From contig DATKIY010000217.1 of NCBI GenBank assembly GCA_035543875.1, forward strand, positions 1 to 40,900: 40,900 nt of DNA, in the 5' to 3' direction. The DNA is from Actinomycetes bacterium (GTDB lineage Bacteria > Actinomycetota > Actinomycetes > JAHEKZ01). Positions within the stretch are counted from its first letter, which is position 1, and the number at the start of each line of letters is the position of its first letter. The translations under genes were made by a program, and so were the position numbers. This document shows positions 5,144-37,477 of this stretch, piece by piece. The notes below the pieces were generated by a model. The model was given only the letters and a program-made list of their open reading frames with translations. It was not told the DNA's origin and made no database searches.

Positions 5144-5392
5144 GTCGCTCCTACCGGCCGAGATATCTTTGCTGTCGGACGCCATGGCCAGGCATCCGGT
5201 TCCGCCGTCACTCCAACCGCTGACCGGCCGTGAGCCGAATGGCGGATACCCGAACTTCGTTTGGCTCGGTAGAAATTAGGTGCCCTGAAAAGGGACTCGG
5301 GGGAGTGGCTCCGCCGAGATTTGGGGGTGTTCCCTCGGCGGGGCCGCCCATTTTCCCAAAGATCTTGCATTGATACCCGCGCGCGGGAGTGA

Positions 5393-6148: not shown

Positions 6149-6945
6149 GCCTGCACCTCCTGGACTTCGCCTGCGCCGCGTTCTCGATTGCGCCCGGTGA
6201 CGTCGAGGAAGACGTCGTCGAGGCTCGGTTCGGTCTCGAGTCCGCGTCGCGTTTTGAGCTCAGACTTCAACTGGCTCGGGCTTCCTTCGCGAACAATCAA
6301 ACCGCCGTCGATAATCGCAAGACGCTCGCACAACTGATCTGCTTCTTCTAGGTACTGAGTGGTTAGGAACACGGTGGTGCCGCGGTGGTTAATGCGTCGA
6401 ACTTCATCCCAAACCACCAATCGGCTGGCTGGGTCGAGACCGGTGGTTGGTTCGTCGAGGAACAGGACATCGGGCTCATGGACGAGCGCTGACGCAAGGT
6501 CGAGGCGTCGCTTCATGCCTCCCGAGTAACCCTTGATGAGCCGATCGGCGGCGTCCACCAGCTCGACAAGCTCAAGGAGTTCTTCTGCTCGCTGGCTTGC
6601 TGTAGTTCTAGACATACCGAACAGGCGTGCTTGAAGGACCAACAGCTCTCTTCCGGTCTGCCGGGGATCGAGTCCGGCCTCCTGCAGGGCGACGCCAATC
6701 TTTCGACGTGCTTCGTCGGGCTCTTTCTCGACATCGACACCCGCGACGCGAGCGATGCCAGCCGTGATTTTGGTGAGTGTGGTGAGCATGCGAACGGTGG
6801 TTGATTTTCCGGCGCCATTGGGGCCGAGGAATCCGAAGATCTCACCGGCTGCCACCGCCAGATCTACGCCACGCACTGCTTCGATCGATTCGCCCTTGGC
6901 GCTGAAGGTCTTTACCAGGCCGTGGGCCTCCACTGCTGTAGTCAT
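6145..6945 (-). CDS. ABC transporter ATP-binding protein (DrrA-like)
   Basis: Walker A GPNGAGKST, signature YSGGMKRRLDLA, Walker B VLFLDEPTTGLD. Confidence 0.9.
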   Translation of the reverse strand: MTTAVEAHGLVKTFSAKGESIEAVRGVDLAVAAGEIFGFLGPNGAGKSTTVRMLTTLTKITAGIARVAGVDVEKEPDEARRKIGVALQEAGLDPRQTGRELLVLQARLFGMSRTTASQRAEELLELVELVDAADRLIKGYSGGMKRRLDLASALVHEPDVLFLDEPTTGLDPASRLVVWDEVRRINHRGTTVFLTTQYLEEADQLCERLAIIDGGLIVREGSPSQLKSELKTRRGLETEPSLDDVFLDVTGRNRERGAGEVQEVQA

Positions 6946-11205: not shown

Positions 11206-11877
11206 TTAGACCGGAATCGAGGTGAACATGTCGGAGTCTGACTCGCGAACAGCAGCCGCCGGAACGGCTCCGTCATGGTTGGCCAGCGAGGAGAGAGCAG
11301 CAGATTTGTCGGTCCCTGTCACCAACCAGACAATCGCGTCCGCGCGATTCACCATGCGCGGGGTGAGAGTCACCCTGGGGAAGCCGCGGAAGCTGTTGAT
11401 GGATGCAACATCGGCTGCAGCCGAGATCACGGCGGCATCACCAGGTGGCCAGGACGCGGTATGCCCGTCGTCGCCAAGGCCAAGGTGAATCACGTCGATT
11501 CGTTGGCCTGCGATCATGCTGATTGTCCTGCCGTACTCCGATGCTGCCGCTTCTGGTGTGAACGACGTGACCGGAATTGCGTGGCGGTGTGATCGCGGGA
11601 TGCCAGCAGGTTCGAGAAGTCCTTGCGTCAAGCCGGTCCAGTTGCGATCCGGATCGCCGTCGGGAGCAACACGTTCGTCGACTTGAAACACATGCACCGC
11701 CTGCCAGGGAACGTCCATCCTCGCGAGCTCATCGAACATGACTTGAGGGGTCTTGCCTCCGCTGAAAGCCACGCTTGCCTGTCCCTGCAGATCGACAAGT
11801 TCGGTCAGTCGATTCGCCAGACACGAAGCGGCGCCAACTGCGGCCTCCAGCTCATGTTCGGTTCGGGTGATTCTCAT
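11206..11877 (-). CDS. pgl: 6-phosphogluconolactonase
   Basis: ORF 11206..12123, trimmed to ATG 11875-11877 (MRITRTEHELEAAV...). Motifs FSGGKTP, VFQVDERV and HLGLGDDGHTASWPPGD. The longer ORF would overlap the zwf 3' end. Confidence 0.8.
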   Translation of the reverse strand: MRITRTEHELEAAVGAASCLANRLTELVDLQGQASVAFSGGKTPQVMFDELARMDVPWQAVHVFQVDERVAPDGDPDRNWTGLTQGLLEPAGIPRSHRHAIPVTSFTPEAAASEYGRTISMIAGQRIDVIHLGLGDDGHTASWPPGDAAVISAAADVASINSFRGFPRVTLTPRMVNRADAIVWLVTGTDKSAALSSLANHDGAVPAAAVRESDSDMFTSIPV

Positions 11878-11902
11878 CAGTGCATCACCGGGGGGAGCGA
11901 GG

Positions 11903-13309
11903 TCATATTTGTGACTGCTCATCGCCGGGTTGATGCCAATGATGATGGCCGAGTAACTCGCTAGCTTCTTCTGGTCCCCAGCTCCCGCGTTCGTAGAAAT
12001 AGATCGGTGACGGTTGATCGAACGCAGGTTGAACCACTCGCCACGCTTGCTGAACTGAGTCTGACCGTGCAAATCGACGCGCTTCGCCGTCGAGGGCGTC
12101 GTCAAGCAGACGTTCATACGCATCCTGCCTCGCGCCGAGTGCGTGGTCGAAATCTACCCGCATCGCGACGTCACGCGTTGCCAGCTCTCGCCCGGGCCGC
12201 TTGGCCTGAACGCCAAGCGTTACGCCGTCGTCCTTACCCAATCTGAAGCGAATCGTGTTGGCGTGTGGCTGCGGTACGGCGTCATCGGTGAACATCATGC
12301 GAGGTGGTGCTCGAAACTCGACAACAGCTTCGGTCCAGGTGGTGGCAAGTGCCTTGCCGACCCGGATATAGAACGGCACACCCGCCCAGCGCCACGAGTC
12401 AATGCGCAGATGTAGGGCTGCGAACGTCTCGACGGTGGAGTCAGGCGCAACGCCAGGTTCCTCTCGATACCCGACGTACTGACCGCGGACGAGGTGAGAT
12501 GGGTCGATGGGACGCATCGCCTTGAGGACGCGAACCTTCTCGTCGCGCAACGCGTCGGCGTCCTTGTCCAGCGGCGGCTCCATGGCGAGGAGCGACACGA
12601 CCTGGAGCATGTGGTTTTGTACGACGTCTCGGATAGCTCCGACATCTTCGTAGAAGGCACCTCGTCCTTCAACGCCGAACTCCTCGGCCATTGTGACCTG
12701 CACGCTGGCGATGTTGTTGCGATTCCACACCGGTTCCAGAAACGAGTTCGCGAACCGGAAGACCAAGAGGTTCTCGACTGCCTCTTTGCCGAGGTAGTGG
12801 TCGATGCGAAAGATGCGGCGCTCGTCAAAGTGCTCGTGCAAAATTCTGTCGAGTTCGATGGCTGATGGGAGGTCGCGGCCGAACGGTTTCTCGACGATGA
12901 CTCGACCGTTTTGGGTGAGCCCTACCGCGGCAAGGTGTTCGGCAACAACGGAGAACATCAGTGGGGGGATCGCGAGGTAGAAGGTTGGCCAACGAATGCC
13001 TTCCAGTTTGGCCGCCAGTCGCTCGAACGTCGCCGCGTCGTTGTAGTCACCGTCAACAATGCACAGCTGCTTGGCCAACTTCGCAAACACCGACTCGTCG
13101 ATCGCACCTCGGGCGGTCAGGATCGCTTGTCGCGCATGATCGTGCAGCACACTGTCGTCCCATGTCGAGCGGGCAACCCCCACGATGGGCACGTCGAGCT
13201 GATCTCGCTCGGCCATTCGGTAAAGCGATGGAAACAGTTTCTTCTTGGCCAGATCGCCGGTGATGCCGAACAGGACCAAGGCATCAGAGCGCGGAAGTCG
13301 ATTCGGCAT
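11903..13309 (-). CDS. zwf: glucose-6-phosphate 1-dehydrogenase
   Basis: GITGDLAKKKLFPSLY dinucleotide-binding motif and the RIDHYLGKE active-site motif. Confidence 0.92.
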   Translation of the reverse strand: MPNRLPRSDALVLFGITGDLAKKKLFPSLYRMAERDQLDVPIVGVARSTWDDSVLHDHARQAILTARGAIDESVFAKLAKQLCIVDGDYNDAATFERLAAKLEGIRWPTFYLAIPPLMFSVVAEHLAAVGLTQNGRVIVEKPFGRDLPSAIELDRILHEHFDERRIFRIDHYLGKEAVENLLVFRFANSFLEPVWNRNNIASVQVTMAEEFGVEGRGAFYEDVGAIRDVVQNHMLQVVSLLAMEPPLDKDADALRDEKVRVLKAMRPIDPSHLVRGQYVGYREEPGVAPDSTVETFAALHLRIDSWRWAGVPFYIRVGKALATTWTEAVVEFRAPPRMMFTDDAVPQPHANTIRFRLGKDDGVTLGVQAKRPGRELATRDVAMRVDFDHALGARQDAYERLLDDALDGEARRFARSDSVQQAWRVVQPAFDQPSPIYFYERGSWGPEEASELLGHHHWHQPGDEQSQI

Positions 13310-13311
13310 GA

Positions 13312-14340
13312 CTATGAAGCACTCCCAGTGGATGGTTGTTCGTGGTGGCCGCCAAATTGTTTCCGCATGGCCGACAGGATGCGATCGGCGAAGTCAGCGT
13401 TACCTCGTGAGCTAAACCGTGAATACAGCGCGGCGGTCAGTACGTAGGCGGGCACACCCTCGTCGACTGCGGCGTGAACCGTCCATCGCCCCTCGCCCGA
13501 GTCGGACACCCGACCTTGGAAGCTCGCCAGGTCGGGTTCTTCGTTCAGCGCCTCTGCTGTGAGGTCGAGTAGCCAGGAACTCACAACGCTGCCGCGTCGC
13601 CAGAGCTCGGTGATAGACGCCAGGTCCAGGTCGTACGCGTAGAACTCTGGGTGAGCGAGCGGCGCGCTCTCTGCGTCTGCTGCGCGGGGGCGGGTCCCTG
13701 CATCGGCTCCTTTCAAAATGGCGAGCCCTTCTGCGAGTGCGGCCATCTGTCCGTACTCGATTCCGTTGTGGACCATCTTGACGAAGTGACCCGCACCGCT
13801 CGGGCCGCAGTGCAGCCAACCTTGCTCGGCGGTGCTTGCTTCACCTGTGCGGGACGGTGTGCGTGGCGCGGCGTCGACTCCTGGTGCCAGCGTTCCCAGC
13901 AACGGTGACAGGCGACGTACGGCTTCTTGGTCTCCACCAACCATGAGGCAAAACCCTCGCTCGAGTCCGAATACGCCACCGCTGGTCCCAATGTCGACGT
14001 AGTGGATGCCACGGGTCGCGAGCGCGGCAGCTCGCCGGATGTCGTCCTGGTAGAAGGAGTTACCCCCGTCGATGATCGTGTCGCCGGGGGATAGCAGCCC
14101 GGCGAGCTCGTCAACGGTTGTGTCGACCACGGCGGCTGGCAGCATCACCCAGACAACGCGCGGGGCTGTTAGTTGGTTCACCAGATCAGTCAGCGAACTC
14201 GCTCCGGCGGCTCCCTCGGCAGCCAACGTGGTCACGGCTACCGGGTCGATGTCGTGAATCACGCAATCGTGGCCGCCCCGTTTGGATCGCCGCACCAGAT
14301 TGGCACCCATCCGCCCCAGGCCGACCATGCCTAACTGCAT
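13312..14340 (-). CDS. gnd: 6-phosphogluconate dehydrogenase (decarboxylating), short Gnd/YqeC-like form
   Basis: ORF 13312..14421, trimmed to ATG 14338-14340 after a GGGAGAG RBS. It begins MQLGMVGLGRMGANLVRR (Rossmann) and contains GGNSFYQDD and DIGTSGGVFGLERG. Only 2 nt separate its stop from the zwf start. Confidence 0.85.
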   Translation of the reverse strand: MQLGMVGLGRMGANLVRRSKRGGHDCVIHDIDPVAVTTLAAEGAAGASSLTDLVNQLTAPRVVWVMLPAAVVDTTVDELAGLLSPGDTIIDGGNSFYQDDIRRAAALATRGIHYVDIGTSGGVFGLERGFCLMVGGDQEAVRRLSPLLGTLAPGVDAAPRTPSRTGEASTAEQGWLHCGPSGAGHFVKMVHNGIEYGQMAALAEGLAILKGADAGTRPRAADAESAPLAHPEFYAYDLDLASITELWRRGSVVSSWLLDLTAEALNEEPDLASFQGRVSDSGEGRWTVHAAVDEGVPAYVLTAALYSRFSSRGNADFADRILSAMRKQFGGHHEQPSTGSAS

Positions 14341-14555
14341 CTGACTCTCCCTTTGCCCATCGTCCGGAATCACCGGTGTGTGTCGCCCGGTCAGTCTGCT
14401 GGGCGGATGCCCACGGAGCAATCGCGGCCCGCTGTCGAAGTCAGCCCGGGTCCTCGAAATGACGGCGACCGGGGTAACTAATCAGAAATGACGGTTTTTG
14501 ATGACATGCGCCTCACGGGCTAATCATTTGAGGGGAGTCGTCCGATGACTATGCC

Positions 14556-16897: not shown

Positions 16898-17038
16898 TGG
16901 CCCTGGGCCGCCTTTCGTCGAAGACGCGCGGCCGCGGGTGGTGGTGATCCACCAGGCCATGGGGCAGAATGCCAAGTGCCCGGTTTCCACGGGGCGAGGC
17001 CGCTGGGGAAGGCGACCCTCGCAAAGGAGGCCGGAGCA

Positions 17039-17545
17039 ATGACGCACGCTTCGACGACGCGCGGTGTGGTGTTCATCCACTCAGCGCCCGCAGCGCTGTG
17101 CCCGCATGTGGAATGGGCGATCGCCGGGGTGTTGGGCGCAGAAGCCAGTCTGGAGTGGATACCGCAGCCGGCTCAGACCGCCTGCTACCGCGCCGAGCTG
17201 AGTTGGCAGGGCGCATCGGGGACCGGCGCCAAACTCGCTTCCGCCATGCGTGGTTGGCAGCACCTGCGCTATGAGATCACCGAAGAGCCGAGCGCTGGTT
17301 TTGAAGGTGAGCGCTACTCCTACACCCCGAGCCTTGGAATTTTCCACGCGGTCATGGGTGTCCACGGCGACATCGTCGTGCCTGAGGATCGACTTCGGTT
17401 CGCGATGCTCGAGGCCGAAGACGGTGGGCCGGCGCTACCGATTGCGCTGGAACAACTCATGGGTAAGCCATGGGACGACGAACTTGAAACCTTCCGCTAC
17501 GCCGGTGACGGTGCGCCGGTCCGTTGGCTGCATCAGGTGATCTAG
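17039..17545 (+). CDS. DUF3145 domain protein (conserved actinobacterial, commonly next to fab genes)
   Basis: ORF 16976..17545, trimmed to ATG 17039 after an AAAGGAGG RBS. It reads MTHASTTRGVVFIHSAPAALCPHVEWAIAGVLG...LSWQG...RYEITEEPS. Confidence 0.75.
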   Translation: MTHASTTRGVVFIHSAPAALCPHVEWAIAGVLGAEASLEWIPQPAQTACYRAELSWQGASGTGAKLASAMRGWQHLRYEITEEPSAGFEGERYSYTPSLGIFHAVMGVHGDIVVPEDRLRFAMLEAEDGGPALPIALEQLMGKPWDDELETFRYAGDGAPVRWLHQVI

Positions 17546-17791: not shown

Positions 17792-19243
17792 TCAGAGCGG
17801 GATGTTGCCGTGGCGGCCGCGTAGCGGGGCCGCAGCCACGATCGCTGCCGCGATGGCCGACCGAGTGCGGTCAGGAGACACGACCTCGTCGACGACGCCG
17901 AGCTCCTTGGCCTTGTCGAGGCCACCCGCGATCAGCTCATGCTCGTCAGCAAGCTCCTGCTCCATCTCGGCCCGCATGTCCTCAGGAAGCTCGGCGAGCC
18001 GTCGGCGATGCAGGATGCGGACAGCGGCGATGGACCCCATGACGGCAACCGTGGCTTGCGGCCAGGCGAAGACCTTGGTGGCACCGAGTGCCCGTGAGTT
18101 CATAGCGATGTAGGCGCCGCCGTAAGCCTTGCGGGTCACGACAGTTACTCGCGGAACGACAGCCTCGGCAAACGCGTGCAGCAGTTTGGCGCCACGACGC
18201 ACGACGCCGTCCCACTCCTGACCAACACCGGGAAGGTAGCCGGGCACATCGACAATGACCACTAGTGGAATACCGAAGGCGTCGCACATGCGGACGAAGC
18301 GCGAGGCCTTCTCGGCCGAAGGTGAGTCGAGACACCCACCGAGCCGCAACGGGTTGTTGGCGATAACGCCAACTGTGCGACCACCCAACCGTCCCAGTGT
18401 TGTCACGATGTTGGGCGCCCACCGTTCATGCAGTTCGACGCTGGTGTCGGGGTCGAGCATGCCGGCTACCAACGGGTGCACGTCGTACGCGCGCTTGGCT
18501 GATTCCGGGAGGTGACCGGACAGATCGACGTCGACAATCTCAGTCGTTGCCTCTAGCTCGCCCTGAGTGCCGAGCAACCGGGTAAGCGCTCGAGCTTTTG
18601 AAAGAGCTTCTTCGTCGCTGTCGGTGGTGATGTGGACGACACCACTACGTCGACCGTGTGGTTCTGGCCCGCCAAGCCGTTCCATGTTGACGTCTTCACC
18701 CGTGACAGAGCGAACAACCTCTGGACCGGTGACGAAGACTCTGCCGTTGGGACCGAGAATGACGATGTCGGTGAGAGCTGGACCGTATGCCGCACCGCCA
18801 GCCGCAGCGCCTAGGACGACGGAGATCTGCGGGATTCGTCCGGACGCCCGCGTCATGATGTTGAACACCTCGCCCACCGCATGCAGTGAGACGACGCCTT
18901 CAGCCAGCCGCGCCCCACCCGAGTGCCACAACCCAATGATGGGGACGTCGTCAGCCAAGGCACGGGCGTAGGCGGCCAGAATGACTTTGCATCCTTCGGC
19001 GCCCATCGCGCCGCCCATAATGGTGGCGTCGGAGGCGAAGGCAACCGCGTGTGACCCATTGACGATTCCGTGTCCGGCGAGCATGCCCGAGTCGCCGTCG
19101 GCGGTGAGTTGGACGAACGTGCCGGCGTCGAAGAAAGCAGTAAGACGCTTCTTTGGATTGCGTGGATCGTCCGCTCGGTCGATCTTTGGCTTCTTCGCCG
19201 CTGTTGTAACAGCAGGACCCTTCGCCGGTTCGGTGACCGTCAC
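17792..19243 (-). CDS. accD6: acyl-CoA carboxylase carboxyltransferase beta subunit (AccD6-like)
   Basis: 483-aa carboxyltransferase-domain protein at the end of the fab operon. GTGA start/stop overlap with fabF (19240-19243). Same position as accD6 in the mycobacterial fasII operon. Confidence 0.85.
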   Translation of the reverse strand: MTVTEPAKGPAVTTAAKKPKIDRADDPRNPKKRLTAFFDAGTFVQLTADGDSGMLAGHGIVNGSHAVAFASDATIMGGAMGAEGCKVILAAYARALADDVPIIGLWHSGGARLAEGVVSLHAVGEVFNIMTRASGRIPQISVVLGAAAGGAAYGPALTDIVILGPNGRVFVTGPEVVRSVTGEDVNMERLGGPEPHGRRSGVVHITTDSDEEALSKARALTRLLGTQGELEATTEIVDVDLSGHLPESAKRAYDVHPLVAGMLDPDTSVELHERWAPNIVTTLGRLGGRTVGVIANNPLRLGGCLDSPSAEKASRFVRMCDAFGIPLVVIVDVPGYLPGVGQEWDGVVRRGAKLLHAFAEAVVPRVTVVTRKAYGGAYIAMNSRALGATKVFAWPQATVAVMGSIAAVRILHRRRLAELPEDMRAEMEQELADEHELIAGGLDKAKELGVVDEVVSPDRTRSAIAAAIVAAAPLRGRHGNIPL

Positions 19244-20505
19244 GAGGTGCTCCGGAATGCGAGGGCAACATTGTGGCCGCCGAAGCCGAAGGAGTTGTTC
19301 AGTGCGATCGCGCCCGGGAAGCGATCAGCCGCGAGTTTGCGCGCCTGCCCGGCAACGATGTCGAGTTTGACCTCTGGGTCGAGGTTGTCGAGGTTGATAG
19401 TGGGCGGCACGATGCGCTCGTACAACGCGAGAACGCATGCCATCGACTCGACGGCCCCGGCCGCTCCAAGCAAGTGGCCGGTCATCGACTTAGTCGAAGT
19501 AACAGCAACTTCAGAGGCGGCGTCTCCAAGCGCGGTGTGAATCGCCAGCGCCTCCGCGAGGTCGCCTTGCGGCGTGCTGGTGCCGTGGGCGTTGATGTGA
19601 ACCACATCGGCTGGAGAGCTACCAGCATCGTCCAAAGACATCCGCATGGCACGCGTTGCGCCTTTGCCCTCAGGATCTGGCTGAGCGATGTGGTGACCGT
19701 CGGCGGTAATTCCGGCCCCTGCCACCTCGGCGTAGACGCGCGCCCCACGAGCCTCAGCGTGTTCCGCGGTCTCCAACACCAGCACGGCAGCGCCTTCACC
19801 GAAGACAAACCCGTCACGTTCGGTGTCCCACGGTCGCGAGGCTGCCGCTGGGTCGTCGTTTCGCTTGCTCAAGGCGCGCATGGCAGCGAACGCCGCCAAG
19901 GGGAGCGGATGGATGCACGCTTCGGTACCGCCAACTACGACGACGTCGGCACGCCCGCTTCGGATCATCTGCAAGCCCTGCGCGACGGCTTCCGCACCCG
20001 ACGCACACGCCGACACCGGTGTGTGGACACCCGCACGTGCGCCCAACTCGAGTCCAACGATTGCCGCTGGACCGTTGGGCATAAGCATCGGGATGGTGTG
20101 CGGACTAACTCGGCGCGGACCAGACTCGCGCAGCACGTCCCACTGACCGAGGAGCGTGAGGGCCCCACCGATGCCAGTGGCAATGCTGACGGCGAGGCGC
20201 TCAGGGTCGACCGTAGGACTGCCAGCGTCCTGCCACGCTTCGCGGGCCGCGATGAGCGCGAGTTGTTGAGTGCGGTCGAGCTTGCGCGCTTCGACTCGAT
20301 CCAACGCGTCCATGGGGTCGACTGCTGCCGACGCCGCAAATGTCACCGGCAACTCCGACGCCCACTCCTGGGTGAGTGAGCGAACGCCGGAGCGACCGGC
20401 CAGTAAGCCTTCCCAGGTCGACGTGACATCGCCGCCGACCGGCGTCGTAGCGCCAAGCCCGGTGACAACGACCGTCGAATCGTCCGACCTGGAGGAGCTC
20501 GCCAT
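19240..20505 (-). CDS. fabF: 3-oxoacyl-ACP synthase II (KAS II / KasA-like)
   Basis: Active-site Cys in PVSACASGAEAV. His motifs INAHGTSTPQGD and KSMTGHLLGAAG. C-terminal NSFGFGGHN. Confidence 0.92.
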   Translation of the reverse strand: MASSSRSDDSTVVVTGLGATTPVGGDVTSTWEGLLAGRSGVRSLTQEWASELPVTFAASAAVDPMDALDRVEARKLDRTQQLALIAAREAWQDAGSPTVDPERLAVSIATGIGGALTLLGQWDVLRESGPRRVSPHTIPMLMPNGPAAIVGLELGARAGVHTPVSACASGAEAVAQGLQMIRSGRADVVVVGGTEACIHPLPLAAFAAMRALSKRNDDPAAASRPWDTERDGFVFGEGAAVLVLETAEHAEARGARVYAEVAGAGITADGHHIAQPDPEGKGATRAMRMSLDDAGSSPADVVHINAHGTSTPQGDLAEALAIHTALGDAASEVAVTSTKSMTGHLLGAAGAVESMACVLALYERIVPPTINLDNLDPEVKLDIVAGQARKLAADRFPGAIALNNSFGFGGHNVALAFRSTS

Positions 20506-20508
20506 GGT

Positions 20509-20754
20509 TCAGGCACCCGCCTGCTGGATGTACGAGACAGCGTCTCCAACCGTGCGCAGATCCTTGACATCGTCGTCCGGAATCTTCACGCCGAACTTCT
20601 CTTCGGCCGCGACGACTACCTCGACCATGGAGAGTGAGTCGATATCGAGATCGTCGGTGAACGACTTGTCGAGCTGGACGTTGTCGACGGGAACGCCGGC
20701 AACCTCGTTGACGATCTCGGCGAGGCCGCCGAGAACTTCCTGCTGATCCGCCAT
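20509..20754 (-). CDS. acpP: acyl carrier protein
   Basis: 81 aa with the phosphopantetheine site DLDIDSLSMVEVV. Confidence 0.92.
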   Translation of the reverse strand: MADQQEVLGGLAEIVNEVAGVPVDNVQLDKSFTDDLDIDSLSMVEVVVAAEEKFGVKIPDDDVKDLRTVGDAVSYIQQAGA

Positions 20755-20873: not shown

Positions 20874-21878
20874 CTAAGGAAGTACCACGACCTGGGCTGA
20901 GTAGACCAGACCCGCACCAAAGCCAATCAGCAAGGCGAGGTCGCCACTTTTTGCCTGTCCGGTCTCTAGCATGCGCGCCATCGCCAGGGGGATGGACGCT
21001 GCTGAGGTATTTCCGGTCTCGGCAATATCCCGCGCGACGGAGACTGACGACGGAAGCGAGAGCTGCTTGATCATGGCGTCGGTGATGCGCATGTTGGCCT
21101 GGTGAGGGATGAACGCGTCGAGCTGGTCGACGGTGATTCCTGCTGCGTCGAGTGCCTGCTGAGCCACCTTCGACATCTCGAACACTGCCCAACGGAAGAC
21201 CTGCTGTCCGCTCATCTGCAGCGAAGGAAAGGCGTGGCCGGGTTCGTCGCGCAGCGTGGTCCAAAAGACGTCTTGCATGATCGCGTCAGCTTGGGCACCG
21301 TCAGATCCCCAGACGACAGGACCAATTGCTGGCTCGTCCGACGGTCCTACGACGACGGCTCCCGCTCCGTCGCCGAAGATGAACGCGATGCTGCGGTCGT
21401 TGGGGTTGACCATGTCGGAGAGCTTCTCGACGCCGACGACCAGCACATGGTGTGCGCTGCCGCCGCGGATCATGTCCTGCGCGAGGCTGAGCCCATAGCT
21501 AAAACCTGCGCACGCAGCACTGATATCGAATGCAGCAGGCTCGTTCGTCCCCAGTCTGAACGCAAGTTCGGCGGCAGCTGAGGGTGTTTGCGTGAGATGT
21601 GTGACCGTTCCTACGATCACGGCGTCAATCTGGTCGACACTCACGCCGGACGCGGCGATCGCTTTCTCTGAGGCTGCCACCGACATCTCAACCACACCCT
21701 CATCTGGGGCGGCGAAGTGTCGCGTGACGATTCCGGAGCGTTCTCGGATCCACTCGTCAGAGGAGTCGATGTGCTCGATAATTTCGGCGTTGGTGACGAC
21801 GCGTGACGGGCGATACCCACCAACGCCGAGGATTCGCGCGTACGCGGCGCCGGGACGTGGTTCAAGCCGTCCACTCAT
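20874..21878 (-). CDS. fabH: 3-oxoacyl-ACP synthase III
   Basis: DISAACAGFSYGL (Cys), IPHQANMRI (His) and GNTSAASIPLA (Asn). ATGA overlap with the fabD stop (21875-21878). Confidence 0.92.
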   Translation of the reverse strand: MSGRLEPRPGAAYARILGVGGYRPSRVVTNAEIIEHIDSSDEWIRERSGIVTRHFAAPDEGVVEMSVAASEKAIAASGVSVDQIDAVIVGTVTHLTQTPSAAAELAFRLGTNEPAAFDISAACAGFSYGLSLAQDMIRGGSAHHVLVVGVEKLSDMVNPNDRSIAFIFGDGAGAVVVGPSDEPAIGPVVWGSDGAQADAIMQDVFWTTLRDEPGHAFPSLQMSGQQVFRWAVFEMSKVAQQALDAAGITVDQLDAFIPHQANMRITDAMIKQLSLPSSVSVARDIAETGNTSAASIPLAMARMLETGQAKSGDLALLIGFGAGLVYSAQVVVLP

Positions 21879-23059
21879 GAGTTGACCTCATGGGGGTGTA
21901 AGCGCACGACCGGTTGTCCTGGGCCGACCGGGTCGCCATCTTCGGCCAACCACTCAACGATCGTTCCACCGTGCGGCGCAACGATGGGTTGCTCATCGCG
22001 GTTGGTGACGATGCGCCCAACGAGCGCACCGGACTCAAGGTCATCGCCAACCTTGACGTCCGCGTGGTGGAACATGCCTTTGGCTGGGGCGACCAACATG
22101 CGCCAGCTCGGTGTGGTCGACATGGGGCTGGGGCTGCCGTGGCGTTCGACCAGGTCGCGCGCGGCCTCGATGTCGTCAGGGGTCTTGAGCGCGACGATCT
22201 CAATGCCCGGTAGTGAGCGCTTAGCCAGGCCGGCGAGTGTTCCGGCTGGTGGCACCTCGATCAGTGCAGTAACGCCGAGCTCGCTCATGGTTCGCATGCA
22301 GAGATCCCAGCGCACCGGATTGCTGACCTGCAGGACGAGTCGTTTGAGATACTCACGACCACTTTGCACCACGGCGCCGTCTGCGTTCGACAGTAGGCGA
22401 GTGCGCGCGTCGTGAGTAGACACGGCCTTGGCATACGAGCCGAGCACCTCGACGGCGGGTTGCATGTAGTGAGTGTGGAACGCGCCAGCGACTGATAGTG
22501 GTCGCAGTCGTGCGCCCTCTGGCGGGTCGTCGTGAAACGCCGCCAAATCCGTTTCGCTCCCAGCAGCGACGATTTGCCCGCCGCCGTTGTTGTTTGCGGC
22601 AGTTAGGTTGTGCTTTTCGATGCTTGCCTGCACAACGTCGGGGTCGCCGCCGAGCACGGCTGTCATTCCGGTCTTGGTTGCGGCCGCGGCTGTGGCCATG
22701 GCCTTTCCACGTTCGCGAACGAACACCATCGCCTGCTCGGCGGAGATGACGCCAGCGGCGGCGGCCGCTGTAATTTCGCCGACGGAGTGACCGGCGCCGA
22801 TCCCGACCAACTTGAACGCGTCGGTGGGGTGGGGGAAGAGACTAAGAAGTGAGACCAGTCCGGCGCCCACCAGAAGTGGCTGCGCAATGGCCGTGTCTCT
22901 TATCTCGTCCGCGTCGGCCTTGGTGCCGTAGTGAATGAGATCGAGGTTGGCGCAGGCGGACAGCCATCGAAGTCGATCTTCGAACCCGGGTAGTTCGAGC
23001 CAGGGTTGGAGGAAGCCAGGGGTCTGAGCGCCCTGTCCTGGCGCGACGATGACAAGCAC
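21875..23059 (-). CDS. fabD: malonyl-CoA:ACP transacylase fused to a C-terminal biotinyl/lipoyl-like domain lacking the modifiable Lys
   Basis: aa 1 to about 305 carry APGQGAQ and the GHSVGE nucleophile elbow. aa about 320-389 (MLVAPAKGMF...GRIVTNRDEQPIVAPHGGTIVEWLAEDGDPVGPGQPVVRL) resemble a BCCP domain. GTG start after an AAGGTGGG RBS. Confidence 0.88.
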   Translation of the reverse strand: MLVIVAPGQGAQTPGFLQPWLELPGFEDRLRWLSACANLDLIHYGTKADADEIRDTAIAQPLLVGAGLVSLLSLFPHPTDAFKLVGIGAGHSVGEITAAAAAGVISAEQAMVFVRERGKAMATAAAATKTGMTAVLGGDPDVVQASIEKHNLTAANNNGGGQIVAAGSETDLAAFHDDPPEGARLRPLSVAGAFHTHYMQPAVEVLGSYAKAVSTHDARTRLLSNADGAVVQSGREYLKRLVLQVSNPVRWDLCMRTMSELGVTALIEVPPAGTLAGLAKRSLPGIEIVALKTPDDIEAARDLVERHGSPSPMSTTPSWRMLVAPAKGMFHHADVKVGDDLESGALVGRIVTNRDEQPIVAPHGGTIVEWLAEDGDPVGPGQPVVRLHPHEVNS

Positions 23060-23125: not shown

Positions 23126-23142
23126 TTGTAGGAATCCTACAA
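23126..23142. promoter_or_regulatory. perfect palindrome TTGTAGGA-A-TCCTACAA upstream of fabD (candidate FasR/MabR operator)
   Basis: 8-1-8 perfect inverted repeat in the 77-bp fasR-fabD gap. It is centred 75 bp upstream of the fabD GTG and overlaps the fasR stop codon. A related copy lies at 24364-24380. Confidence 0.5.
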
Positions 23143-24321
23143 CCGGGGCCGCGGTCGGTCGTCGAGGCGACCCAGCGTGAGGGCCACCTTGAGGGTAAAT
23201 GCGTCGCGTGGCTCGGTGGGTGTGCGGCCGCAGACCTCCGCGATTCGGCGCATCCGGTAGCGCACGGTGTTGGTGTGCACGAACAACTGACGAGCTGCGC
23301 CCTCGAGCGACGGTGACTGTTCGAGTACAGCTGCGGCCGTGTCCAGCAGGCCACCTCCGGCTTCAACGAGGGGGCGGTAGACCTGCTCGACGAGTCGGCG
23401 GCGGGCTTCTTCGTCTCCGTCGAGGGCTCGTTCGGGGAGGAGCTGATCTGAGGAGACGGGCCGCGGCGCATCGGGCCATGCTGCCGCCGCGCGAAAGCCG
23501 GACAACGCGGCCGATGCTGATCCCGGAGCGGCTGACAGGTCCGGGACCACTGGTCCCACGACGACCGGTCCGGAACCGAAGGCCGTTGCAAGCTGCGCGG
23601 CGGCTGGCAGTGGGTCGACGCTTTGGCCGAGGTCGCCGCCGAAGACCGCAACCAGCTCGTGGCCATGAACGCCAGTGACCACGTCGAGGCCAGCGTGCCT
23701 GGACGCTCGGCGCAGTGCGTCGACCACGGTTGCAGCGGTGGCATCAGGGGTCTGACCTGCAACGGCGAACACGTGCGGTGAGGCACGCCAGCCAAGTGCC
23801 GCGGCCCGTGAACGTACTTCGTCATCGAACTCGCCGCGTAACAATGAGTCGGCCAACAGTGCTTCTAACCTCGCGTCCCAGGCGCCCCGCGCCTCGGCGG
23901 CTCCCGCGTAAACCTCTGCCGCTGCGAATGCCACCTCACGCGCGTAGACAAGTACAGACTCACGAAGCTGGCTTTCGTCTCCTGGTGCGGCGAGTTCTGC
24001 GCTGCGTTCCTCGACCACCTCGATGGTGACGCGAACCAGTTCCACCGTTTGTTGCAGCGAGACAGCGCGAGTGAGCTCGCGGGGTGCTGAGCCAAACACG
24101 TCAGCGGTGATGGTGCGTGCTGCCTCAGGGCGGCCGTACCACTCAACGAATGCGCCGATACCCGCTTGCGCTACCAAGGTGATCCACGAACGGTCCTCGG
24201 CTGCCATTCCGCGAAACCAGGGGAGGGTTGCTTCCATGCGGGTCATAGCTTCGCTGGCCAGGTCGCCGGATGCCCGTTCCAATCGACGAACGGTCGCGGC
24301 ACTTGCTCGGGCAGTCGGCAC
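23137..24321 (-). CDS. fasR: PucR-family transcriptional regulator, FasR/MabR-like (regulator of the fab operon)
   Basis: 394 aa with a C-terminal PucR-type HTH (LFVHTNTVRYRMRRIAEV). It lies immediately upstream of fabD, as do S. coelicolor FasR and M. tuberculosis MabR (Rv2242). GTG start at 24319-24321; the start is uncertain. Confidence 0.75.
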   Translation of the reverse strand: MPTARASAATVRRLERASGDLASEAMTRMEATLPWFRGMAAEDRSWITLVAQAGIGAFVEWYGRPEAARTITADVFGSAPRELTRAVSLQQTVELVRVTIEVVEERSAELAAPGDESQLRESVLVYAREVAFAAAEVYAGAAEARGAWDARLEALLADSLLRGEFDDEVRSRAAALGWRASPHVFAVAGQTPDATAATVVDALRRASRHAGLDVVTGVHGHELVAVFGGDLGQSVDPLPAAAQLATAFGSGPVVVGPVVPDLSAAPGSASAALSGFRAAAAWPDAPRPVSSDQLLPERALDGDEEARRRLVEQVYRPLVEAGGGLLDTAAAVLEQSPSLEGAARQLFVHTNTVRYRMRRIAEVCGRTPTEPRDAFTLKVALTLGRLDDRPRPRL

Positions 24322-27887: not shown

Positions 27888-30623
27888 TCAGGCGTCGCCC
27901 ATCCCTGCGCCGGGGTCCGCGGCACGCGGATCGTCGATCCGGTAGCGGTCAAACGCCTCAGCAACCACCTCTCGCTTGACTTCGCCGAGCCGCGCGAGCT
28001 CTTGCAGCGTGCGGACGGCGATCGACTCGGCATCGATCCGGAAATGCCGTCTAAGCGCGCCGCGGGTGTCGGACAGCCCAAAGCCATCAGTGCCGAGTGT
28101 CACGTAGTCGCCGGGAACCCAAGGTCGGATCAGCTCCTGCACCGCCCGCTGGTAGTCGGAGACGGCGACGATCGGTCCCGATACCTGCTCAAGTTTTTGT
28201 GTGACGTAAGACGTCTGCGGTTCGACGGTTGGGTTCAGCATGTTGTGCGAGTCAACCGCGAGCCCTTCGCGATGCAGCTCAACCCAGGACGTGACAGACC
28301 AGACGTCTGCGCTTACCCCCCAGTCGTCGCCGAGGAGTCGAGCAGCCTCCAACGTGGCTGGCATGGCCGAGCCGCTCGCCAACAGCTGCGCATGAGTACC
28401 GCCGTTGCGCGTACTGGTCTGGTAGCGGTAGAGCCCGCGCAGCAACCCTTCGACATCGACATCAGCGGGCTCGGCGGGTTGCTCGATGGGCTCGTTGTAG
28501 ACGGTCAGGTAGTAGTACACGTTCTCGGGTGACTTGCCGTACATCCGTCGTAGGCCGTCGCGCACGATGTGACCGATTTCGAAGCCAAACGCCGGGTCGT
28601 AGCTGACAACGGCCGGATTGGTCGCAGCAAGCAGCAGCGAGTGCCCGTCTTCGTGTTGCAGACCTTCCCCATTGAGCGTGGTGCGACCAGCGGTTGCGCC
28701 GATGAGGAACCCGCGCGCCATCTGGTCTGCTGCCGCCCAAAAAGCATCGGCGGTCCGCTGGAAACCGAACATCGAGTAGAAGATGTAAATCGGGATCATC
28801 GGTTCGTCGTGCGTGGCATAGGACGAGCCGACGGCGGTGAACGAAGCTGCTGACCCTGCCTCATTAATGCCTTGGTGAAGTAGCTGGCCGTCTGTGGCTT
28901 CCTTGTACGACAACATGAGTTCGCGATCGACGGATGCATACGTCTGACCGTGAGGGTTGTAGATCTTCTGGACGGCGAACATGGCGTCCATGCCGAAGGT
29001 GCGCGCTTCGTCGGGGATGATTGGGACGATGCGGTGCCCGATCTCTGGGTCCTTGAGCAGGTCTTTCAGCAAGCGAACAAACGCCATCGTCGTTGCGATG
29101 TGTTGCTTGCCGGCCCCTCGGCGTGCCACTTCATACACGGGGTCGCCCGGCAGGACCAGTGGTTTGCTCTCGGTGCGGCGTCGCGGCAAGTAGCCGCCCA
29201 GTGCCTTGCGTCGGTCGTGCAGGTAGCGGGTGATGTCGCTGTCCTCGCCTGGGTGGTAGTACGGCGGCAGCTTCTCGTCGATCCGGTCGTCTTCGATCGG
29301 GATTTGGAGGCGGTCGCGGAATCCCTTGAGGTCGTCGAGCGTCAGTTTCTTCATCTGGTGCGTGGAGTTACGCCCCTCAAAGTGCGAACCAAGAGTCCAA
29401 CCCTTGATGGTCTTAGCCAAGATGACGGTCGGCTGTCCCTTGTGCTCGACCGCCGACAGGTACGCACCGTAGAGCTTGCGGTAGTCGTGACCGCCGCGCT
29501 GTAGCGCCCAAATCTGGTCGTCCGTCCAGTCCTCGACCAGCTTGCGCGTGCGTGGATCGCGGCCAAAGAAGTGGTCGCGGATGAACCCGCCGTCTTCGGA
29601 CTTGTAGGTCTGGAAGTCTCCGTCAGGAGTGGTGTTCATGACGTTAACCAAGGCACCGTCAGAGTCCTGAGCAAGCAACGGGTCCCAGCTTCGACCCCAG
29701 ATCACCTTGATGACGTTCCATCCGGCGCCACGGAAGAACGCCTCCAGCTCTTGGATGATTTTCCCGTTGCCGCGGACCGGGCCGTCGAGCCGCTGCAGGT
29801 TGCAGTTGACGACGAACGTGAGGTTGTCGAGCTCTTCGCGCGCGGCGAGGCCGATGGGGCCGAGCGACTCCACTTCGTCCATCTCGCCATCGCCGAGGAA
29901 CGCCCACACGTGTTGGTCGGAGGTGTCCTTGATGCCACGGTTGTGCAAGTAGCGGTTGAACTGCGCCTGATAGATCGCATTGATAGGGCCGAGGCCCATA
30001 GAGACGGTGGGGAACTCCCAAAAGTCGGGCATGAGACGTGGATGCGGATACGAGGGGAGACCACCTGCTGGGTGCGACAACTCCTGTCGGAAGCCATCGA
30101 GCCGGTCCTCGGTCAGGCGTCCTTCTAGGTACGCGCGCGCGTACACACCTGGCGATGCGTGACCCTGGATGTAAATCTGGTCGCCGCCGCCTTCGTGCTC
30201 GCGTCCGCGAAAGAAGTGGTTGAACCCGACTTCGTACAACGACGCGCTGGACGCGTACGTGGAGATGTGGCCGCCAACTCCCACGCCGGGACGCTGCGCA
30301 CGGTGAACCATGATGGCCGCGTTCCACCGGATGTACGCGCGGATTCGTCGCTCGACCCACTCGTCGCCCGGAAACCACGGTTCTTGTTCGGGCGGGATGG
30401 TGTTGATGTAGTCCGTGGTGGTCAGGGACGGAACGCCGACATTCTTCTCGCGGGCACGTTGGAGCAGGCTGAGCATGAGGTACCGCGCCCGATACGCGCC
30501 CTGGTCGTCGATCACCGCGTCGAGTGAGTCGCGCCACTCCTGCGTCTCCTCGGGGTCGACGTCGACCAGCTGCGTGGGAAGCCCGCTGCTGATGAGAGGT
30601 TCGCGCTCGCGCCCGTTAGTCAC
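27888..30623 (-). CDS. aceE: pyruvate dehydrogenase E1 component (homodimeric type)
   Basis: ORF 27888..30839, trimmed to GTG 30621-30623 after an AGGAAGGG RBS ([30 protein letters not shown]...). ThDP motif [12 protein letters not shown]...NCNLQRLDG. About 911 aa, as expected for AceE. Confidence 0.9.
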
Positions 30624-30798
30624 GCTGGTGCCGCCCTTCCTATGAGCCGCTTGGACTGCTCGAACTGCTCCCGGCAAGTCCGTCAGGGTTTGGGACCTGG
30701 TCCGGCGTGCCCAGCCTACGCGCGACGGGCTACCCCTTCCCCTCGGCGCGTTCGCGCGGCAGGGTGAGCCACGGGGGAGCAGATTCAAGGAGGTCGCA

Positions 30799-30993
30799 AT
30801 GCATGCCAGCGTGGGTGAGAAGCTCGTTTTGCACGCCAATCACGTGGGCGAACCCGATCGGCTGGGTGAAATTCTCGAGGTACGCGGGACCGACGGCGGC
30901 CCGCCGTTTTTGGTGAAGTTCGACGATGGCCACGAGGGTTTGGTGTTCCCGGGACCAGATGCTGAGGTCAAGCACCGACCCGGCAAACAGTAA
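30799..30993 (+). CDS. DUF1918 domain protein
   Basis: 64 aa after a CAAGGAGG RBS: [44 protein letters not shown] matches the DUF1918 pattern. Confidence 0.75.
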
Positions 30994-32945: not shown

Positions 32946-33017
32946 GGGCGTATAGCTCAGCGGTAGAGCACTGGTCTTACAAACCAGCGGTCGTAGGTTC
33001 GATCCCTACTGCGCCCA
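32946..33017 (+). tRNA. tRNA-Val: tRNA-Val (anticodon TAC)
   Basis: The cloverleaf folds by hand. Acceptor GGGCGTA/TGCGCCC, D arm GCTC-AGCGGTA-GAGC, anticodon arm CTGGT-CTTACAA-ACCAG. Variable loop CGGTC, T arm GTAGG-TTCGATC-CCTAC, discriminator A. CCA is not encoded. Confidence 0.93.
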
Positions 33018-33058: not shown

Positions 33059-33583
33059 CTACGCGTCCGAACGTTGCGAAGGTAGGGCCGCGCTAGGGTC
33101 CGGTCGCAGCAGAACAGCTCGACGCGATGCGTCGGCAACCTTCTCCTCTTCGAACAGGTGCGTGTAGACCGCTGCGGTGAACTCCGGCGTGGAGCGACCG
33201 AGTCTCCTGCTGATCCCAAGCATCGACTCACCGGCAGCGTGACCGAGTGACGCTGAAAGGTGGCGCAGGTCGTGGAGCCGACAGACGCGCACACCCGCGC
33301 GCTCGGCCGCCCGTTGGAACGCTTGAGTGAGTGACTCGGGGAGGTAGGGCTGGCCGTTTTCCTTGACGAACACACAGTCGTTGACTTCGTACGCCTCGCC
33401 CCACGCAAGTCCCTCAGCGGCCTGCTGCCGTTTCCACTGACGCAAGACGGCAACGGTGTCGGTCGTGGAGTGAACGGCGCGACCTGTTCCTGCTTTTGTC
33501 TTCGGGATTCCTTCGTGGACGTCGCGGTCTAGCTGACGCTCACACCCAAGTTGACCTGGGCCGAGGTAGGCAGTGGCAGGCGT
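33059..33583 (-). pseudogene. tyrosine recombinase (phage-type integrase) remnant, C-terminal catalytic part only
   Basis: The C-terminal about 175 aa of ORF 33059..34000 read IPKTKAGTGRAVHSTTDTVAVLRQ...VRVCRLHDLRHLSASLGHAAGESMLGISRRLGRSTPEFTAAVYTHLFEE (HxLRH box and the Y of the catalytic tail). The N-terminal domains are missing. The upstream part of the ORF is not integrase-like and overlaps the + strand gene. Confidence 0.7.
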
Positions 33584-33715
33584 TCGAGGTGGGAGCATCG
33601 ATGTCATGGAGCGAATGTCTGCCGCCGAAGGCGGCGGCAGACGGGTGGCCCGGGCATTCCGTAACGCTCTCGGAACGCCCCGACGGGAGGATCGGCGAAA
33701 AGGAGGTCGTGATCG

Positions 33716-34993
33716 ATGCCTACTGCCGTGCGCTGGCGTACCGGCGTCGTGTGGACGCTCACCTGGGCGGTGCCGGTACTGGCGATCCTCGCTGTCCTGG
33801 CCAGCCTGAAGGCGACGCTCGAGTTCACGGGAACCGGCCAGACAGCCTCCACCGCCGGCGTGGCCCTGGTCGGTCTTTGCGGAAGCGCATGCGCGCTCAT
33901 CGGCGGGACGATCTGTGCCCGAACCCCGAACATACGAATCGGTGCTCTCTTGCTCGGGCTCGGCTGGGTCATCGCTCTGACACTGGCGTGGATGTCCCAA
34001 GCGGCTCTAGACCTGCCGGGTTCGGCCTGGGTTCCGTCGCTCCTATCCCTGGTGACCATCCAGGTGTTTCCGCTCATGGCAATGGTGCTCCTGCTCTTCC
34101 CGGACGGCCACCTGCTGTCTCCCCGTTGGCGACCAGCGGTGTGGCTGATCGTGGCCATCGCGGTGTTGTCTGTTCTGCTCACCGGGTTCGATCCGCAGAT
34201 CTCTGACCCCAGAGGGGCCGAGTCGGTCGTGAACTGGTTCATGACTGACTCGGGGGCACACCTGCTGTTCACGCTGATCCCAGTGGCGTTGCTGTCAGGT
34301 GCGGTCTCGCTGGTGCTTCGGTTCCGGCGGTCGACGGGCGTCATTCACGTGCAGCTGAAGTGGTTGGCGTTCGCGGCGGTAGTCGCGACCGTTGCCCAGG
34401 TGATGCAGACCGTCTTGTGGACCCTGGCCCAGGTCTACGGCCTGCCACTGGGTGGCGTGAGCTTCGTCGTGCTGGCTCTCGGGTTCACCGCCATCCCTGT
34501 GGCGTGCGGAGTCGCCATCCTCCGCTACCACCTCTTCGACATCGATCGCGTGGTCAGTCGATCCGTGGCGTACTTAGGCGTGACCGCAGTAGTGGTGACC
34601 GTCTACCTATGCATCGTGGCCACGATGACGTATTTCCTCCCGGTGCAGACCAACCTCGCTGTGGCGCTGGGCACCCTGGCAGCAGCATCGGTGCTTGAGC
34701 CGACCCGGCGGCATGTACAGCGCGCTGTCGACCGGCGTTTCAACCGTGCGCGCTATGACTCGGTCCAGACCGTGGAGGCGTTCGGGGTCCGCCTGTCACA
34801 CGTGCTCGACGACGCGACCGTGCCCGACGACCTGCTGCAGACGGTCGCTGCCACGTTGCAGCCCAGCACCCTCGCCCTGTATGAGCGACCGTTGCCAACC
34901 AAGAACCCAACCGAGGGGCGTCCATCGCCGTCGAGCACCCGGACGATGACGTCGACTAGACCTTCGGTCTCCCGGCGCGAGGGTCGGCGGTAG
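33716..34993 (+). CDS. polytopic membrane protein with sensor-kinase-like N-terminal module, no kinase core
   Basis: ATG after an AAAGGAGG RBS, with strong third-position GC bias. About 9 TM segments, then LRYHLFDIDRVVSRSVAYLGVTAVV and QRAVDRRFNRARYDSVQTVEAFGVRLS...LQPSTLALYERP. In my memory this motif set occurs in the membrane part of actinobacterial HisKA_3-type sensor proteins. No DHp or ATPase motifs are present. Confidence 0.6.
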   Translation: MPTAVRWRTGVVWTLTWAVPVLAILAVLASLKATLEFTGTGQTASTAGVALVGLCGSACALIGGTICARTPNIRIGALLLGLGWVIALTLAWMSQAALDLPGSAWVPSLLSLVTIQVFPLMAMVLLLFPDGHLLSPRWRPAVWLIVAIAVLSVLLTGFDPQISDPRGAESVVNWFMTDSGAHLLFTLIPVALLSGAVSLVLRFRRSTGVIHVQLKWLAFAAVVATVAQVMQTVLWTLAQVYGLPLGGVSFVVLALGFTAIPVACGVAILRYHLFDIDRVVSRSVAYLGVTAVVVTVYLCIVATMTYFLPVQTNLAVALGTLAAASVLEPTRRHVQRAVDRRFNRARYDSVQTVEAFGVRLSHVLDDATVPDDLLQTVAATLQPSTLALYERPLPTKNPTEGRPSPSSTRTMTSTRPSVSRREGRR

Positions 34994-37185: not shown

Positions 37186-37429
37186 TTACCGCTGACGCCT
37201 CGCCTGACCTGCGGCGAGCGAGGGCTAGGCGGGCGACCGTGAGGGCAGCTCGTCAGATCCAGCTGAGCACGTTGGCGATCGGGTACACGAGTGCACCGCC
37301 TACGGCGGCAACGACGATGCCCTGCAGCAGGGCGACGATGCCTGCGAGCGCGACTTCCGGTGCGCTCCTCGGCGGGAGACCGGCCGCTTCGCGGACCCTC
37401 GGCGCGGGCGACAAACCGGACGACCGGAC

Positions 37430-37477
37430 CTGGTCTTACAAACCAGCGATCGTAGGTTCGATCCCTACTGCGCCCAC
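37430..37477 (+). repeat. direct repeat of tRNA-Val 3' part (distal att junction of the island)
   Basis: CTGGTCTTACAAACCAGCGATCGTAGGTTCGATCCCTACTGCGCCCAC is identical to 32971-33018 except for one G to A change at 37449. Confidence 0.85.

Follow-up and report, generated by a model that had tools for sequence, protein, structure and literature searches.

Why should a malonyl-CoA:acyl carrier protein (ACP) transacylase, FabD, carry at its C-terminus a relative of the biotin carboxyl carrier protein (BCCP) domain that has lost the lysine to which biotin is attached? The question is raised by a fabD gene in a 40,900-nucleotide stretch of DNA from an Actinomycetes bacterium (assembly GCA_035543875.1, contig DATKIY010000217.1, positions 1 to 40,900), referred to hereafter as the window. 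An earlier note, made from the sequence alone, had described this architecture and suggested that the extra domain might tether FabD to the AccD6-type carboxyltransferase encoded in the same operon. We find that the biotinyl-like domain (BLD) is a genuine biotinyl-type domain fused in frame to FabD, and that the fusion is a widespread and ancient, but apparently uncharacterised, variant of FabD in Actinomycetes.

A biotinyl-type domain without its lysine

The 394-residue protein is read from a single open reading frame (ORF) with no stop or frameshift in the window, as the earlier note had it, and its N-terminal part is predicted to be an ordinary and catalytically competent FabD. This part reaches 49.8 bits against Acyl_transf_1 (PF00698; cut-off 32.7), and the catalytic residues Q9 (GQGAQ), S92 (GHSVGE), R117 and H195 (GAFHT) are all present and invariant in an alignment of 49 homologues. 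In the full-length AlphaFold model, with a predicted local distance difference test score (pLDDT) of 88.3, the top Foldseek match is the S. coelicolor FabD 1nm2, at a template modelling (TM) score of 0.97, a root-mean-square deviation (rmsd) of 1.2 Å and 60% identity; the M. tuberculosis FabD 2qc3 is 49% identical to the catalytic part (Foldseek). The scores remain below the NCBIfam equivalog cut-offs (TIGR00128, 159.8 against 260.9 bits; TIGR03131 (mdcH), 175.3 against 297.9 bits), a shortfall which in our own judgement is due to the divergence of actinobacterial FabDs, the cut-offs being tuned to non-actinobacterial ones. The FabD assignment was kept despite the TIGR00128 shortfall because the identity to the S. 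coelicolor enzyme and the operon context outweigh it. The linker that follows the catalytic part is variable in sequence across loci, P317 excepted.

The two analyses that the earlier note had proposed for the extension, a Pfam search and a structural comparison with BCCP, both bear out its identity. Residues 311-394 alone score 26.4 bits against Biotin_lipoyl (PF00364), and the whole protein 22.6, with a gathering cut-off of 22.1. The single BLD sequence matches the 1.3S transcarboxylase carrier protein 1o78 with an E value of 3.5e-4 (HMMER), while a profile built from the C-terminal domains of 15 homologues, compared with the PDB, finds the same protein at 3.4e-11 and also matches the P. horikoshii and E. 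coli BCCP, the carrier domains of MCC, PCC and PC, and lipoyl domains. The AlphaFold model of the BLD (pLDDT 89.5, and 94-98 over the core) consists of six to eight β-strands without helices, and its best Foldseek matches are the biotin-carrier domains 2evb, 5gua, 2d5d, 9a87 (Arabidopsis BCCP1) and 1bdo (E. coli), with target-normalised TM scores of 0.79-0.90, rmsd values of 1.2-2.2 Å and a probability of 1.00; CphZ, aspartoacylase and succinylglutamate desuccinylase are also among the matches. Both marks of the biotinyl/lipoyl fold are found in the BLD, the Pfam score and the flattened β-barrel of ~70-80 residues with quasi-twofold symmetry. The placement of the domain at 21893-22102 given by the earlier note holds, except that this span corresponds to R320..P389, one codon off the M321 that it had named.

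An identity as membrane-fusion protein was also considered. HlyD_3 matches with 25.3 bits over aa 359-389 only (~31 residues, against profile positions 2-32 of 106), the precomputed matches of the BLD include PF25997 and PF25919 (BSH_YhbJ and BSH_CusB), and one NCBI name reads 'HlyD family'. This half-motif match was rejected because the BLD is contiguous and has no helical hairpin, and because the protein ends 5 residues later.

The tip of the BLD hairpin is occupied by Arg354. Its counterpart in all HMMER alignments is the modified lysine, which is the biotinyl Lys of the EAMKM motif in three carrier proteins (1o78, 1z6h and 2d5d) and the lipoyl Lys of the TDK motif in the lipoyl domain 7q5q. 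Canonical biotinylation is excluded, in agreement with the earlier note, because the modified Lys is replaced by Arg. Throughout the family the carrier hairpin E-A-M-K-M has become a conserved [S/T]-x-R-D-E, with Arg at this position in 70 of 75 loci and 231 of 247 family proteins (about 93-94%). We looked for an intermediate retaining Lys or MKM, and neither an MKM nor an aligned Lys occurs in the 247 family proteins. Among the 75 loci a lone Lys stands at the aligned position in L028 (labels of this kind denote loci), from the Candidatus Nanopelagicales metagenome-assembled genome (MAG) Tobar12.5m-G5, in the non-canonical context TLKEE; its hairpin reads ...IRTLKEEIPVHAPHGG.... The scores also stay below the cut-offs of the models for functional BCCPs (TIGR00531, 14.1 against 115.2 bits; NF005457, 29.9 against 87 bits), and the BLD is attached to FabD and not to a biotin carboxylase or another carboxylase subunit. 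With both the defining Lys and the equivalog scores failing, the BLD is predicted not to be a functional BCCP, and the hairpin looks re-purposed rather than simply degraded.

Spread and conservation of the fusion

In the public protein collection one protein is 100% identical to the window FabD and at least 8000 are homologous, the best 120 of these being all ~394 aa long. A scan of one genome per species returned at least 598 species with a relative, and the best 80 loci were examined. The complete fusion, with its frame unbroken, is present in 74 of them; four run into the end of their contig (L039, L063, L076 and L077) and one carries a frameshift (L066). The remaining locus, L078 (uncultured actinobacterium Ja1_bin-3476), encodes a 328-aa FabD without BLD at 2392-3321 on the plus strand and is a natural loss variant. 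Its catalytic domain is 68% identical to that of the window and fabH begins ~80 bp after FabD.

Carriers of the fusion span at least eight actinomycete lineages, in a conserved fatty-acid operon. They comprise Embleya (Kitasatosporales); Kribbella, Nocardioides and Propionicimonas (Propionibacteriales); Jiangella and Phytoactinopolyspora (Jiangellales, the order having been checked for Jiangella only); Actinospica, Actinocrinis and Catenulispora (Catenulisporales, checked for Actinospica only); Janibacter and Phycicoccus (Micrococcales, checked for Janibacter only); and, among others, Candidatus Nanopelagicales, Sporichthyaceae and Acidothermaceae. The library of representatives at 50% identity holds at least nine distinct clusters of full-length fusions, which share 44-65% identity with the query and stand among ordinary actinobacterial FabDs of 300-320 aa. 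In a rough neighbour-joining tree of the catalytic domains of these representatives, clusters with and without BLD are interspersed, which suggests an old gain of the domain followed by several losses, although the tree is too crude for counting events. Two loci, L003 and L076, come from MAGs labelled 'Bifidobacterium breve' and show the same actinomycete type II fatty-acid synthase (FAS-II) operon, ~70% identical to that of the window; these MAGs have almost certainly been mislabelled.

The fusion is hidden behind generic source names such as 'acyltransferase domain-containing protein', 'S-malonyltransferase' and 'ACP S-malonyltransferase', and fragments of the BLD are called 'biotin attachment protein' or even 'HlyD family'. 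The earlier note had suggested a survey of FabD architectures and had allowed that the fusion might prove to be widespread and already characterised. Widespread it is, as the 74 intact loci testify; searches of the accessible literature found no paper on a fusion of FabD with a biotinyl domain, and only papers on the plant BADC proteins surfaced.

A profile search for stand-alone copies of the BLD returned many proteins of 74-152 aa, and the apparent stand-alone ORFs that we inspected gave no convincing case of a split FabD/BLD gene. The one of L081 is a gene-call artefact, a 392-aa ORF being intact there. Those of L082, L083 and L084 lie in long-read assemblies in which fabH, fabF and accD6 are fragmented too, and the break between FabD and BLD in L082 is a change of frame. 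The other short matches, mostly on contigs of 0.5-3 kb and not inspected one by one, are probably contig-end fragments. In L084 (long-read MAG contig_9880) a product of 892 aa combining ketoacyl-synthase and carboxyltransferase (FabF-AccD6) is called at 4738-6414 on the plus strand, probably as an indel artefact of a noisy assembly.

The nucleotide sequence of the extension resembles that of the rest of the gene. Its GC content at the three codon positions is 0.70/0.46/0.74, compared with 0.71/0.48/0.71 in the catalytic part, so that the normal third-position bias mentioned in the earlier note is confirmed; with this bias shared and the frame continuous, an origin by frameshift or read-through was rejected. 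The median dN/dS over 74 pairs of close relatives is 0.30 for the BLD and 0.16 for the catalytic domain, and the BLD is thus under clear purifying selection, somewhat weaker than that on the enzyme part. Column conservation is uneven along the domain, at 0.35-0.53 in aa 331-360 and at 0.82-0.87, equal to that of the catalytic core, in aa 361-389 (APHGGTVVEWLVEDGDPVSPGQPLVRLHP). Within this last segment G365, E369, G375, V378, G381, R386 and P389 are invariant and W370 is kept in 74 of 75 loci; four further columns are invariant elsewhere in the BLD, and the entry strand is conserved as well (P317, W319, R320, P325, K327 and G328). Some of these positions belong to the structural signature that biotinyl domains have in general; W319, H363, E369, W370, R386, H388 and P389 are conserved residues specific to the family. 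Because of the low dN/dS, the core-like conservation of aa 361-389 and the intact frame in 74 of the 80 loci, the BLD appears, by these evolutionary measures, to be functional and not decaying.

A decay of the BLD upon loss of an adjacent accD6 was considered for L047 and L075 and rejected. The lower identity of their BLDs is common to Propionibacteriaceae relatives having accD6 (L023, L027 and L057); it is phylogenetic, and no signal of relaxation is seen.

The operon and its surroundings

The features of the window that concern the fusion are collected in the table below. On the minus strand the genes follow in the order PucR-type regulator, fabD, fabH, acpP, fabF/kasA-type synthase and carboxyltransferase, so that fabD stands, as is characteristic of a FabD, in a FAS-II operon together with fabH, acpP and fabF.

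Features of the FabD fusion and of its neighbourhood in the window (aa, residues of the 394-aa protein)
Feature	Position	Strand	Description and basis
fabD ORF	21875..23059	-	394 aa; catalytic domain, linker and BLD in a single frame; ORF list
Malonyl-CoA:ACP transacylase domain, aa 1-307	22139..23059	-	Pfam Acyl_transf_1; Foldseek best match 1nm2
Linker GSPSPMSTTPS, aa 308-318	22106..22138	-	Ser/Pro/Thr-rich; pLDDT ~60 for residues 311-320 in both models
BLD, aa 319-389	21893..22105	-	Contiguous all-beta barrel-sandwich hybrid fold; Pfam PF00364; pLDDT ~90-97 in both models
Arg354 codon (cgc)	21998..22000	-	Hairpin tip, motif T-N-R-D-E; HMMER alignments, sequence read
Most conserved BLD part, aa 361-389, APHGGTIVEWLAEDGDPVGPGQPVVRLHP	21893..21979	-	Column conservation
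PucR-type regulator (MabR / Streptomyces FasR-like)	23137..24321	-	Upstream of fabD; Pfam HTH_30 + GGDEF_2
fabH (KAS III)	20874..21878	-	Start overlaps fabD stop (ATGA)
acpP, acyl carrier protein	20509..20754	-	Pfam PP-binding
fabF/kasA-type ketoacyl-ACP synthase	19240..20505	-	Pfam ketoacyl-synt N + C domains
accD6-type carboxyltransferase beta subunit	17792..19243	-	Last operon gene; Pfam Carboxyl_trans
Pyruvate dehydrogenase E1 component	27888-30839		Upstream of operon
DUF3145 gene	16976-17545	+	Beyond accD6

This arrangement matches the mycobacterial order aceE-mabR-fabD-acpM-kasA-kasB-accD6. In the DNA read, FabD ends in ...RLHPHEVNS* and fabH opens with MSGRLE..., and the ATGA overlap between the two genes, reported in the earlier note, is seen in the sequence; it is not conserved, most loci having a gap of 20-90 bp instead. 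In the window fabF and accD6 also overlap, by 4 nt (19240-19243), and accD6 lies immediately 3' of fabF in nearly all loci with enough sequence to show it. The carboxyltransferase scores 618 bits against the M. tuberculosis AccD6 (4fb8/4l6w) and 378 bits against PccB, which upholds its earlier assignment to the AccD6 type and makes it a true AccD6 orthologue. A scan of 30 of the 65 six-frame ORFs with 150 aa or more, the FabD ORF among them, found neither a biotin carboxylase nor a BCCP domain, and the earlier statement that no BCCP gene lies in the window agrees with this. As for the regulator, the domain architecture of MabR is described in PMC11617747.

The DUF3145 gene is convergent with the operon in most related loci, where its synteny with the FAS-II operon is as tight as that of the operon genes themselves; in L047, L074 and L075 it directly follows fabF.

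Other parts of the window are of separate interest. A tRNA at 32946-33017 (plus strand, 75 bits) is directly followed by an ORF of the phage-integrase family at 33059-34000 (minus strand), then, over 33.7-37 kb, by several large ORFs without Pfam matches (33716-34993 and 35685-37040) and by a second, weak tRNA match at 37406-37476; an integrated element may lie here. An ORF of 503 aa matches a lysyl-oxidase domain (38.9 bits) and RTX calcium-binding repeats occur in two others; these secreted-protein-like ORFs, at 7579-9090 (minus), 1349-2167 (minus) and 4038-4601 (plus), are unrelated to the FabD finding. The minus-strand ORFs for 6-phosphogluconolactonase and glucose-6-phosphate dehydrogenase (11206-12123 and 11903-13309), which belong, together with a 6PGD-like gene (13312-14421), to a pentose-phosphate cluster, overlap by ~220 nt, and translation of the lactonase probably begins downstream of the first possible start of its ORF.

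Possible roles of the domain and known counterparts

We propose that a domain derived from a biotin carboxyl carrier joined the C-terminus of FabD long ago within the Actinomycetes, and that the replacement of its hairpin would have left it without cofactor and unable to shuttle CO2. The BLD would then act as a non-catalytic, outward-facing protein-protein docking module. An outward-facing adaptor is favoured over a lid because the linker is short and modelled with low confidence, and because in FabD and related acyltransferases the C-terminus is found on the side facing away from the active-site gorge. The most likely partner would be acetyl-CoA carboxylase, either through the AccD6 carboxyltransferase or through an AccA3-type partner. 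We favour it because docking on biotin carboxylase and carboxyltransferase sites is, to our knowledge, the only job of the ancestral domain, and because the operon usually ends in accD6. Such docking would put FabD beside the site of malonyl-CoA release and couple the production of malonyl-CoA to the loading of ACP, a reading that we advance tentatively and with clearly less than even confidence. A more elaborate form, which we consider unlikely, would be a metabolon, present in many actinomycetes, in which the Arg-tipped hairpin occupies the carrier-docking site of AccD6 or AccA3, with either a direct handover of malonyl-CoA or a gating of the carboxylase by the occupancy of FabD.

Several observations weigh against a docking on acetyl-CoA carboxylase. 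In a mirror-tree comparison, which paired the BLD with every protein of the operon across 50 loci and has low power for a domain of 70 aa, the partial correlation with AccD6 is -0.04 when the other operon proteins are controlled for; the correlation with AccD6 is no better than with FabH, FabF or the regulator, and the partial correlations span only -0.04 to 0.17, pointing to no specific partner. The BLD is kept without an adjacent accD6 in L047, L072, L074 and L075 (more than 3 kb past fabF), and probably also in L035, and Mycobacterium has accD6 in the operon yet a single-domain FabD (PDB 2qc3). Moreover, a BLD sitting in the carrier site of the carboxyltransferase would be a competitor of the genuine BCCP, inhibiting as much as channelling. 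The hairpin half of the BLD is also the more variable one, Arg excepted, and in real BCCPs this half is the contact side toward carboxyltransferase and biotin carboxylase. The tethering to AccD6 that was put forward in the earlier note has so far no specific computational support and is a reasonable hypothesis reached purely by inference.

The persistence of the BLD where accD6 is not adjacent, and the absence of a co-variation signal with AccD6 in the same low-power test, also favour a different kind of adaptor, unrelated to the carboxylase. The domain could promote the self-association or the stabilisation of FabD, or it could dock FabD on other FAS-II components (FabH, FabF/KasA or ACP), and in this last variant recreate in trans the ketosynthase-acyltransferase arrangement of a megasynthase. 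There are precedents in CphZ, aspartoacylase and succinylglutamate desuccinylase, which use a C-terminal barrel-sandwich hybrid domain as a purely structural or accessory module, and in the window fabD is translationally coupled to fabH. The overlap behind this coupling is nevertheless replaced by a gap in most loci, the mirror-tree signal is likewise absent for FabH, FabF and AcpP, and the closest relatives of the BLD in sequence and fold are genuine carrier domains of carboxylases, not accessory hybrid domains. On balance we regard an adaptor of this kind as somewhat unlikely.

It is rather improbable that the BLD would be a decoy, similar to the plant BADCs, competing with BCCP for a site on biotin carboxylase or carboxyltransferase and damping the synthesis of malonyl-CoA in proportion to free FabD as a feedback. 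The hallmark of the BADCs, a BCCP homologue without biotinyl Lys (PMC12706156), is indeed shared, the tip of the hairpin keeps a conserved basic residue, and the operon arrangement suggests co-expression with accD6. But BADCs are separate subunits which bind biotin carboxylase and also BCCP, the latter at its thumb protrusion (PMC11926652), whereas the BLD of 70 aa has no region beyond the core and finds its best matches among short archaeal and transcarboxylase carrier domains. In addition, it would seem self-defeating for an essential enzyme to carry, in a fixed 1:1 ratio, an inhibitor of its own pathway.

Arabidopsis PII binds BCCP and also the lysine-less BADC proteins (PMC12706156). By analogy, the BLD might conceivably be the part of FabD that is recognised by a regulator normally binding BCCP, for instance a PII-type signal protein, and would then subject FabD to control by nitrogen or energy status; neither the window nor the related loci give any hint of PII, and we judge this very improbable. 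Finally, a functionless vestige or an artefact of annotation or assembly (read-through or frameshift fusion), to which the variable first half of the BLD and its appearance as a separate small ORF in some database entries might speak, is effectively refuted by the continuous frame in the window and in the 74 species-level loci, by the dN/dS of 0.30 and the seven invariant columns in aa 361-389 with four elsewhere, and by the separate ORFs inspected (L081-L084) being all artefacts.

FabD and acetyl-CoA carboxylase perform consecutive steps at the entry of fatty-acid synthesis, and both are targets for antibiotics and for metabolic engineering in actinomycetes. A copy of a carrier domain without cofactor, maintained on FabD in hundreds of species, would imply an unrecognised protein-protein interaction, which could serve channelling, feedback or the assembly of a complex. 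Should the carboxylase be the partner, the BLD would represent the first bacterial case of a 'dead BCCP', an independently evolved counterpart of BADC regulation in plants, and would provide a handle on how the supply of malonyl-CoA is coupled to FAS-II. With any other partner, the BLD still marks a lineage-specific organisation of FAS-II that generic annotation names conceal.

Compared with known systems, the fusion shares with the single-domain FabDs (S. coelicolor SCO2387, 1nm2; M. tuberculosis Rv2243, 2qc3; E. coli 1mla) the fold and the catalytic residues of aa 1-307, as well as the same position in the operon, regulator-fabD-(fabH)-acp-kas-accD6. These well-studied enzymes are single-domain proteins, as the earlier note had stated, and FabDs of known structure have 302-320 residues. 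Every PDB match of the window protein breaks off near its residue 308, and an extra 87 aa of linker and BLD set this protein apart from all solved FabDs. With the biotin carrier domains (1o78/1dcz, 2evb/2d5d, 1bdo and the AccA3 C-terminus 9yx1) the BLD has in common the flattened β-barrel fold of ~70 aa, and it keeps both APxxG half-motifs and GDxVxxGQxL. It differs from them in having [S/T]-x-R-D-E in place of E-A-M-K-M, and so no biotin site, and in being fused to a transacylase, whereas their partner is a biotin carboxylase or carboxylase subunit.

The hybrid domains of membrane-fusion proteins and those of CphZ and aspartoacylase, also lysine-less, are among the matches too. The former have in common with the BLD the C-terminal half-motif xPxxGxVxxxxVxxGDxVxxGQxLxxL, but they are periplasmic and split by an α-hairpin, whereas the BLD is contiguous, cytoplasmic and set in a FAS-II context; they match only in part, and the full-length matches of the BLD are carrier domains of carboxylases. 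The closest functional analogues of the BLD would be the plant BADCs, lysine-less BCCP homologues which bind subunits of acetyl-CoA carboxylase and act through protein-protein interactions where malonyl-CoA is made for fatty-acid synthesis (PMC12706156, PMC11926652). The biotinyl Lys is absent from both, and was presumably lost independently. A BADC is a free-standing plastid protein which assembles with biotin carboxylase and BCCP, whereas the bacterial BLD consists of the core only and is always fused to FabD.

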